Shown here one piece after another: positions 1-2,859 of a DNA stretch of 64,000 nucleotides (position 1 is the first letter of the stretch; the number at the start of each line of letters is the position of its first letter). Below the pieces are notes generated by a model, which saw only the letters and a program-made list of their open reading frames with translations, made no database searches and was not told the DNA's origin. Origin of the DNA: Escherichia phage vB_EcoM_LNA2; the sequence record MZ311865.1. One strand, 5' to 3'. The position numbers and the translations under genes were made by a program.

Positions 1-2277
1 ACACTTACTACTAAATTAATGGGCCTTCGTAATGATGGCGCAATGGTATTACGTCGTTCGCTTGCTATTGGCACAATTACCACTGACGAAAATACTAATA
101 ACTATGGCTCTCCTACTCCAATGGGAGAAAGATATATTGCTTTGGGCGATGCTGCCACTGGTTTAAAATACATTAAGCAGGGTGTTTATGATTTAGTAGG
201 TAATTGGAATTCTGTTGCTTCTATTACTCCAGATAGTTTCCGTAGTACTCGTAAAGGTATATTTGGCCGTTCCGAGGACCAAGGTGGAACATGGATAATG
301 CCGGGAACCAATGCTGCTCTCTTGTCTGTTCAAACACAAGCTGATAATAACAATGCTGGAGACGGACAAACTCATATCGGGTACAACGCTGGCGGTAAAA
401 TGAACCACTATTTCCGCGGTACTGGTCAGATGAATATCAATACCCAACAAGGTATGAAAATTAACCCGGGTATTTTGAAACTGGTAACTGGCGGTGAAAG
501 TATTAGCTTTAATGCCGCAACTGGAAGTATTAATTCTACATTAGCTTTTCGTCTTAATAAAGGCATAATTATTGATGGACCTGATAATCAGGGATTCCAG
601 TTTAACGCCCCGACGGCTGCAGATGGTACTAGAAGTATATACTGGAACAGTGGTACTCGCGCAGGTCAAAACAAAATCCCTGTTACAGTTAAAGTGTGGG
701 GTAATTCATTTAACGCATCTGGCGATCGTTCTCGTGAAACGGTTTTTGAAGTAGCTGATGGGCAAGGTTACCATTTTTATTCTCAACGCGTAGCTCCTGC
801 TCCTGGTTCTACCGTCGGACCTATTCAATTTCGAGTTAATGGTGGTTTATTAACTTCAGGTAGTATTGTTACTTCTGGTTCTATTACAACTGAATCTTCT
901 TTAAGTGTTAATAATGGCATGTCAGTAAACGGACAAGCTAAATTCGGTGGAACAGCTGATGCATTAAGAATTTGGAATGCTGAATACGGCGCAATTTTCC
1001 GTCGTTCAGAAGCATCATTATATATTATCCCGACTCCTAAAGATGCTGGAGAATCAGGCGGTATAAGTAATCTTAGACCATTGATAATAGAACTGAACAC
1101 TGGCACAGTTAAAATGTCGCATGATGTTCATTTAGGAGATTCTGGATCTGGTACAGGATTATTACAAGTAAGTAATAGTCTTAAAACTATTAAAATGATA
1201 TGTCCAGTAACTATTACTGAACGTAATGCAGCGCTTACTCTAGATTCTCCTTCATCTTCTTCTGCTAATTATTTACAGGGTTCTAAAGCTGGAACTAGAA
1301 CGTGGTATGTTGGTCTTGGTGGCTCTGGAAATGATTTATCACTTTATAGTCAATCTTATGGACACGGTCTTGTTATAAGCGATAATTTCGTGGCAATCAG
1401 TAAACCTCTTAAAGTTGGAAATGCTCAATTCGGTACTGATGGTAACATTACTGGTGGTTCTGGTAATTTTGCTAACTTGAATACCACAATAAATAACCTT
1501 AAGACGGATATTGTGTCGAGTTACCCAATTGGTGCTCCGATTCCTTGGCCTACTGATACACCTCCTGAAGGTTATGCCATAATGGAAGGTCAAACATTTG
1601 ATGCTGGCTTGTATCCTAAGTTAGCTGCGGTGTATCCTTCCGGCACTCTGCCTGATATGCGTGGTCAAACTATCAAGGGTAAACCATCTGGGCGTGCTGT
1701 ATTAAGTACAGAAGCGGACGGCGTTAAGTCACATAGCCATAGTGCAAGTGCATCAAGCACAGATTTGGGTACTAAAACTACGTCAAGCTTTGATTATGGT
1801 ACTAAGACGACAAGTAGCTTCGACTATGGTACTAAGACCAGTAATACCACTGGTAACCATAACCATACCGTGAGTGGTAATACTGGTTCCGCTGGTGCGC
1901 ACCAACACGCGCGTTCAGGTCCTCAGGTACAAGGCGGCATACCCACTAGCGTATTCTATGATGGATACAATAGTGCTGGTCCAAACGGCAACGCTAAATT
2001 CACTGCAACCGTGAGCGGTGCTACTGCATCGTCGAATATGGCCAAAACTTCTTCAGACGGCGCCCACACCCATAGTTGGTCAGGAACTACTAGCGCTACT
2101 GGTAACCATGCTCATACTGTGGGTATTGGTGCTCATACCCATTCGGTAGGTATTGGTGCCCACTCTCATTCGGTAGCGATTGGTTCTCATGGCCATACTA
2201 TCACTGTAAATAGTACAGGTAATACAGAAAACACGGTTAAAAACGTTGCTTTTAACTATATCGTTCGTTTAGCATAA
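1..2277 (+). CDS. 37: Long tail fibre distal subunit gp37, C-terminal ~750 aa (5' end outside window)
   Basis: ORF open from nt 1; Gly/Ser/Thr-rich fibre sequence, C-terminal His-x-His boxes, ends ...NYIVRLA as I recall for T4 gp37; followed by gp38 and t. Confidence 0.9.
1771..1842 (+). repeat. Tandem 30-bp in-frame repeat in gene 37 ([10 protein letters not shown] x2.4)
   Basis: [26 protein letters not shown] with synonymous differences between copies. Confidence 0.8.
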
Positions 2278-2283
2278 GGAGAA

Positions 2284-2302
2284 GGGACTTCGGTCCCTTT
2301 TT
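2284..2302 (+). terminator. GGGAC-UUCG-GUCCC hairpin plus U5 between gene 37 stop and gene 38 start
   Basis: Perfect 5-bp stem, UUCG tetraloop, T-run; sits between the AAGGAG SD and the gene 38 ATG. Confidence 0.55.
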
Positions 2303-2307
2303 ATAAC

Positions 2308-2859
2308 ATGAAACTCTATCATTATTATTTTGACACTAAAGAATTTTACAAAGAAGAAAATTATAAACCATTAAAAGGCGTAGGATTTCCGGCTCATTCG
2401 ACACCAAAAAAACCTTTAGACCCTAAAGAAGGCTATGCTGTTATATTTGATGAACGCGAACAAGAATGGGTATATGTTGAAGACCATCGCGGAAAAACAG
2501 TATGGACTTATGATAAGCAAAAAATTGTTATTGACACCCCAGGTGCTCTTCAAAATGTTACTACAGAAGAACCTGGTGAATTTGACATTTGGACCGGTGA
2601 CGGGTGGAAGGAAGATGAAGCATATAAACGCGTAGTTCAACGTGATAAGAAAATTCATGAACTCTATAAATTATTCAGTGTTTTAAGTTCTCTTATTGAC
2701 GCAGAGGTTGCTAATAGAGAAGAAAAACGAAAATTTAAAGAGCTCAAAAAATTCTTTGCTCTTTTAGAAAAACATGAACATCTTGGCGGCGAATTCCCTA
2801 AATTCCCTGACCTTGAAAACAAATCTATTATCAAAGCGATTATAAATATCTTTAAGTAA
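2308..2859 (+). CDS. 38: Tail fibre assembly chaperone gp38 (T4 type)
   Basis: 183 aa, MKLYHYYFDTKEFYKEENYKP... very close to recalled T4 gp38; position after 37. Confidence 0.9.
   Translation: MKLYHYYFDTKEFYKEENYKPLKGVGFPAHSTPKKPLDPKEGYAVIFDEREQEWVYVEDHRGKTVWTYDKQKIVIDTPGALQNVTTEEPGEFDIWTGDGWKEDEAYKRVVQRDKKIHELYKLFSVLSSLIDAEVANREEKRKFKELKKFFALLEKHEHLGGEFPKFPDLENKSIIKAIINIFK
2841..2848 (+). promoter_or_regulatory. T4-type late promoter TATAAATA upstream of holin t
   Basis: Exact TATAAATA about 20 nt upstream of the t start, inside the 3' end of gene 38. Confidence 0.55.

Follow-up and report, generated by a model that had tools for sequence, protein, structure and literature searches.

The closest described cases are phage T4 genes 38 and 25, in which, according to a published review (PMC3014915), a Shine-Dalgarno (SD) sequence lies too far from its AUG and is made functional by intervening RNA structure. 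For gene 38, the review gives a reduction of the spacing from 22 to 5 nt through structure (Nivinskas et al., 1999, cited there), and for gene 25, located at the 26-25 junction, a reduction from 27 to 11 nt (Nivinskas et al., 1999; Malys and Nivinskas, 2009). Evidence cited for the gene 25 structure comes from mutations, DMS probing and fusions to lacZ, and destabilising mutations are said to lower initiation, a statement made of genes 38 and 25 jointly. Hairpins of the CUUCGG type are abundant in T4 intergenic regions and have varied roles, mRNA stability among them (Tuerk et al., 1988, as cited in PMC8948821).

The window analyzed here, a 64,000-nt stretch of Escherichia phage vB_EcoM_LNA2 (MZ311865.1), comes from a T4-like phage. 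Its first 24 kb are ~96.6% identical to Escherichia phage p000v, and in this part O157 typing phages 3 and 6, classed in Mosigvirus, are close relatives as well. The two genes at its left end had been labelled 37 and 38 in the original prediction, and rightly so: the upstream protein contains the Pfam domains gp37_trimer, Collar and Gp34_trimer, its gene is named long tail fibre distal subunit in the records of relatives, the downstream product is 66.5% identical to T4 gp38, and the gene 3' of it encodes the T holin. The features of this region are the following:

1..2277, + strand: gene 37 (distal long tail fibre subunit), 3' portion, with its frame open from the first base and its 5' portion cut off by the left window edge
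2275-2277, + strand: stop codon UAA of gene 37, ending the frame as GCA UAA (sequence reading)
2276-2281, + strand: AAGGAG, SD sequence of gene 38, sharing bases with the gene 37 stop (UAAGGAG, 2275-2281)
2279..2302, + strand: predicted 10-bp helix of the free RNA (G2279-U2302)
2282..2299, + strand: 7-bp hairpin left when the SD is held single-stranded (constrained fold, -10.0 kcal/mol)
2284-2297, + strand: core hairpin, with 5' arm GGGAC (2284-2288), loop UUCG (2289-2292) and 3' arm GUCCC (2293-2297)
2298-2302, + strand: run of five U immediately 3' of the core stem (sequence reading)
2308-2310, + strand: start codon AUG of gene 38
2308..2859, + strand: gene 38, tail fibre assembly chaperone, 183 aa (Pfam Caudo_TAP)
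2841..2848, + strand: late-promoter consensus TATAAATA for gene t, located within the 3' end of gene 38; an annotated T4-late promoter lies there in the SA79RD record

Read in order, the junction consists of GCA, the UAA stop, GGAG, two A residues, GGGAC, UUCG, GUCCC, five U, AUAAC and AUG, the leader 2298-2307 being UUUUUAUAAC. The distance from the last G of the SD to the A of the AUG is 26 nt by sequence reading, close to the ~25 nt originally given. The hairpin GGGAC-UUCG-GUCCC predicted between them is indeed found at 2284-2297, and the predicted helix of the free RNA is longer than had been described. No purine-rich SD closer to AUG 2308 was seen on reading the junction sequence. An alternative gene 38 start nearer the SD was ruled out, as no in-frame ATG, GTG or TTG is present between the gene 37 stop and 2308 (2278-2307); AUG 2308 is the only possible start of the gene. 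The junction therefore has an SD far from the start codon, with neither a nearer SD nor another start, as expected of a split ribosome-binding site of the T4 gene 38 type.

The T4 counterpart, also between genes 37 and 38, is composed of UAAGGAG, a single A, GGGGC, UUCG, GCCCC, UUCUAAAU and AUG. The T4 junction (UAAGGAGAGGGGCUUCGGCCCCUUCUAAAUAUG) is homologous to that of the window in both position and sequence, and the 81-nt region is ~88% identical to T4. Shared features are the position, the UAAGGAG placed over the stop, a 5-bp GC-rich stem, the UUCG loop and the looped-out spacing. The two differ in the fourth stem pair, which is G-C in T4 and A-U in the window type, and in length, as the window carries an additional A 5' of the stem and two additional bases 3' of it (gap of 26 vs 23 nt). 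In addition, the window type has the run of five U where T4 has UUCUAAAU, and a predicted CAUA/UAUG helix joining the stop and the start in T4 is absent from the window type. The split site of T4 gene 25 is similar in that an overlong SD-AUG spacing is cut by an intervening stem-loop, but it belongs to another gene junction and is unrelated in sequence. An Rfam search at 2100-2500 yielded four matches, all far below the gathering scores (best 21.1 bits vs 50), and hence no family.

The 71-nt stretch 2260-2330 has a predicted folding energy of -16.3 kcal/mol, whereas its dinucleotide shuffles average -9.5 (z = -2.64) and 5 in 200 of them fold as stably; the core hairpin 2284-2297 is predicted at -7.5 kcal/mol. 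In the free RNA, the predicted 10-bp helix takes in all five U, U2298-U2302 doubling as the 3' partners of the stem extension, and masks the GAG of the SD by three weak pairs to U2300-U2302. Since this helix reaches into the SD, the structure would partly mask the site that it supposedly helps. The 7-bp hairpin obtained with the SD held open consists of the core plus A2282-U2299 and A2283-U2298, adjoins the SD without a gap and is separated from the AUG by 8 nt (2300-2307); in both the core and the 7-bp form, a stable hairpin is located wholly between the SD and the AUG, as in a split site. Opening the SD would cost ~3.6 kcal/mol (-14.3 kcal/mol free vs -10.7 kcal/mol SD-open), compared with -9.3 kcal/mol predicted for the 7-bp duplex of the SD with the 3' end of E. 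coli 16S rRNA. The masking is weak, and the ribosome should win.

The 81-nt junction used as a query matched 208 phage records, all across at least 80% of the query length and all at least 80% identical. About 100 of them reached an identity of 90% or more and represent the window type, and 108 fell within 80-90%, comprising the T4 type with its variants. Sixteen distinct variants were obtained from records of Tequatrovirus, Mosigvirus, Gaprivervirus and Dhakavirus and from four metagenome contigs. The UAAGGAG overlap of stop and SD was invariant in all 16, and all stem cells across these variants (102/102, 100%) formed standard pairs. Four of the five core pairs show no variation; the fourth pair (A2287-U2294 in the window) is G-C in 11 variants, A-U in four, including the window, and G.U in one, found in ESh33 and phage 55. 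Such a G-C, G.U, A-U series is the usual route of compensated change. The observed paired fraction and covariation score were reached by no shuffle, and when the partner columns were slid, pairing fell to 29-80%. Support for compensatory maintenance of the stem is real but thin, coming from one varying pair among close relatives; moreover, the junction travels between phages as a recombining cassette, so that its conservation comes partly from shared descent. Three of the four loop columns vary: the loop is UUCG in most variants and UUCU, UUUG, UUAU, UUAG or GUUA in others.

The geometry was compared in 11 SD-bearing variants by folding them with AAGGAG forced single-stranded, mimicking its pairing with 16S rRNA. 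In each of these folds the SD is followed by the hairpin with 0 nt in between, and the spacing to the AUG after loop-out is 6-8 nt (8 nt in the window), a functional distance, while the linear gap is 22-26 nt. In the window type, the extra A 5' of the stem is matched by a pairing U 3' of it, which gives the 7-bp hairpin and leaves 8 nt. A special arrangement occurs in the Salmonella phage Lv5cm, whose single, unconfirmed record has a 76-nt tandem duplication at the junction: an 18-codon ORF ending in UAG directly precedes a second hairpin-AUG copy, which has no SD and stands before the full-length gene.

Environmental searches added few junctions. In IMG/VR, two contigs only were recovered by the gp38 protein and a 19-nt pattern of the junction. 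A metagenome scan with TCGTTTAGCATAAGGAG returned 63 stretches, and T4-like junctions were present in only four of them (L031, L037, L056 and L057); about 45 of the remainder came from a human-gut locus that is highly conserved but unrelated, and the others looked like chance matches.

Taken with the T4 review (PMC3014915), the anatomy of the junction, its homology to the T4 element, the compensated pairing of the stem in the 16 variants and the constant spacing of 6-8 nt argue for the view, already raised as a possibility in the original prediction, that hairpin formation moves a distant SD to a working distance. In this phage, the junction hairpin probably represents the split ribosome-binding site known from T4 gene 38, the effect on translation being taken from the T4 literature. 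We infer the following order of events at the ribosome. The 30S subunit would pair with the SD, and the three weak pairs masking GAG would open; the UUCG-capped 7-bp hairpin 2282-2299 would stay and loop out 18 nt, starting from the first base after the SD. About eight unstructured A/U-rich bases (2300-2307) would then separate the SD from the AUG, a workable spacing.

Several other roles for the hairpin have to be weighed against, or beside, a split ribosome-binding site. Short GC-rich hairpins followed at once by a U-run are the form of intrinsic (Rho-independent) terminators, and the hairpin had also been said to look like a terminator or attenuator for gene 37 transcripts. As far as resemblance goes, this holds: the core stem is GC-rich (5 bp, four of them G-C), the loop has 4 nt, and the tail is UUUUUAUA, U occupying six of the eight bases 3' of the core stem. 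Exactly this 14-nt hairpin is given as a putative terminator (-11.80) in the ARNold-based annotation of phage WFbE185 (MK373778.1); in MK373782.1, too, the junction match covers a terminator feature. Window-type variants have U5-U6 after the stem (U6 in O157 typing phage 6), and elements made of a hairpin and a U-run are found between other co-directional genes of the window (e.g., 10592-10577). A polymerase stopping at the five U on some late transcripts would end the gene 37 mRNA and lower the dose of gp38, and such leaky termination would be compatible, as a second role, with the split ribosome-binding site. We consider it unlikely, however. The core stem has merely 5 bp and -7.5 kcal/mol, and consecutive U number five only. 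T4-type variants carry UUCUAAAU or UUCUGAAU in place of the U-run, so termination is not the reason why the element stays conserved. The hairpin was unlisted by the terminator scan of the window, probably because the scan extends the stem through the U-run, and it is unmarked in the SA79RD record, annotated with TransTermHP and WebGeSTer. Furthermore, it stands 10 nt 5' of gene 38, which is essential and co-transcribed. A late promoter of gene 38's own was considered and rejected: the sole match to TATAAATA on the + strand of the window is that at 2841-2848, and every gene 38 mRNA must therefore read through the hairpin. With no promoter after it, efficient termination would remove an essential assembly factor. 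Thus, the terminator likeness is borne out in appearance, but a conserved terminator function is not supported, and the element is at most a leaky attenuator specific to the window-type lineage. A literature search for terminators of T4 late transcripts and for RNA 3' ends at 37-38 found no 3'-end data, and the TransTerm table of Nolan et al. (2006) has no RB69 37-38 terminator, an entry that would carry weight only if RB69 has this junction. Attenuation also enters a combined scheme, in which the window-type hairpin would be a two-in-one switch that terminates a set fraction of gene 37 transcripts and builds the gene 38 ribosome-binding site on read-through, gene 37 translation unmasking the SD. 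This we regard as very unlikely; if it were true, these activities together would fix the ratio of fibre protein to chaperone, and the Lv5cm duplication would indicate that ribosomes can reinitiate across the hairpin even where no SD is present. The U5-U6 run is taken in that scheme as a gain of the window-type lineage.

Given the overlap of the SD with the gene 37 stop, initiation at gene 38 could be due, partly or entirely, to ribosomes terminating there. Under such termination-reinitiation coupling, ribosomes ending gene 37 would open the lower stem, stay on the mRNA and restart at AUG 2308; the hairpin would shorten the path from stop to start, and the SD would mainly hold the 30S subunit after termination rather than recruit free subunits. 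The core begins 7 nt past the stop, so that, to judge from the sequence, a ribosome terminating on gene 37 would open the pairs that mask the SD and probably leave the core intact. Every variant keeps the UAAGGAG overlap, as coupling would have it, but strict keeping of the 7-bp SD is also expected under ordinary initiation. Synthesis of full-length gp38 in Lv5cm would need reinitiation, since its second copy is without an SD, but this arrangement rests on one unverified record; the published T4 account, moreover, credits the SD-hairpin-AUG geometry (PMC3014915). We find coupling as the main route somewhat doubtful. The hairpin could also be one of the general C(UUCG)G hairpins and serve mainly as a 3' barrier, stabilizing the gene 37 mRNA against 3' exonucleases or marking a processing site, its location in the gene 38 leader being a by-product of tight gene packing. 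The window contains 11 C(UUCG)G hairpins of at least 5 bp, compared with 0.27 expected (first-order Markov model, maximum of two in 300 simulations); ten of these are intergenic, mostly 0-7 nt past the end of an ORF, and the 37-38 hairpin, with its C-G-closed UUCG loop and intercistronic location, is a member of this enriched set. It is the only one of the 11 on the + strand. Still, the barrier is an improbable explanation of the element: most hairpins of the set sit after a gene, ahead of a normal downstream SD, whereas that at 37-38 is alone among the 11 in separating an SD from its start codon where a second SD is lacking. Orthologues of the hairpin tolerate the other loops listed above in place of UUCG, while the stem and the looped-out spacing are kept. 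Membership in the T-even C(UUCG)G hairpins placed just after stop codons nevertheless suggests an additional role, in that the hairpin may also protect the 3' end of the gene 37 mRNA or weakly attenuate transcription. Coupling, attenuation and 3' stabilization are each compatible with a split ribosome-binding site.

The main idea behind the split ribosome-binding site is already published for the homologous T4 element, and the element described here is real but ordinary; it matters little past correct annotation. Finders of ribosome-binding sites and gene callers will miss or misplace that of gene 38, one record placing it as 3 nt inside the hairpin, and terminator finders will call the hairpin a terminator, as in MK373778.1. 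The natural variants, spanning G-C, G.U and A-U stem pairs, six loops and gaps of 22-26 nt, form a ready-made small mutant series on a structured spacer that sets the distance between the SD and the AUG.

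The window contains 11 C(UUCG)G hairpins in total, against a chance expectation of 0.27. Besides the hairpin at the junction of genes 37 and 38, there are ten, with stems of 6-11 bp, all on the - strand of the window. Nine of these ten are intergenic, most lying 0-7 nt past the end of an ORF, and U-runs stand behind several of them, as indicated in the list.

C(UUCG)G hairpins on the - strand of the window
51287-51268, -, followed by a U-run
44652-44633, -, AAUGGGACUUCGGUCCCAUU; 14-nt core identical to that of the 37-38 hairpin, with UGGAG immediately after
33964-33945, -, 8 bp, -13.5 kcal/mol; the sole member of the set located inside a long ORF and not in an intergenic region
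32209-32188, -, AAAGGAGACUUCGGUCUCCUUU; AAGGAG within the 5' arm
26589-26568, -, followed by a U-run
17099-17084, -, followed by a U-run
15218-15201, -, hairpin
10592-10577, -, followed by a U-run
8255-8230, -, hairpin
6725-6708, -, hairpin

The hairpin at 32209-32188 lies 4 nt past an ORF end, and the next long ATG-initiated ORF starts 64 nt downstream. The late-promoter consensus TATAAATA is rarer than expected from shuffled sequences, with three occurrences in the whole window vs. 7.2. The 17-nt pattern used in the metagenome scan is also contained in an unrelated, strongly conserved locus, TAAATTATCGTTTAGCATAAGGAGAAAT..TTGAAATTATTTTTTGATGA, present in about 45 human-gut contigs (among L007-L068); this locus is found in many gut assemblies, with variable upstream sequence.

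In the predicted fold of T4-type junctions (T4 itself, record L003, 566-603, and others), an additional 4-bp helix, CAUA/UAUG, is formed between the last codon of gene 37 together with the U of its stop codon and the start of gene 38. In these variants, the helix would place the gene 37 stop and the gene 38 start next to each other. The window type, which has ACAUG at this position, differs from the T4 type in lacking the helix.

In Escherichia phage 55 (L086, OQ599310.1), a 3-nt "ribosome_binding_site" is annotated at 343-345, in the 3' arm of the hairpin and not at AAGGAG; thus, the split site misleads automatic calling of ribosome-binding sites. Salmonella phage Lv5cm (L073, MZ150757.1, 296-405) carries a tandem 76-nt duplication of the hairpin, the AUG and gene 38 codons 1-17. 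The first copy retains the Shine-Dalgarno (SD) sequence and reaches a UAG stop after 18 codons; the second has no SD before the hairpin, and full-length gene 38 begins there. Unless it arose through misassembly, this duplication is a natural example of reinitiation across the hairpin without an SD.

Finally, gene 38 is in frame with gene 37 in the window (2275-2310), with UAA and ten sense codons lying between the two. If the stop codon at 2275-2277 were read through, a gene 37-gene 38 fusion protein would result.
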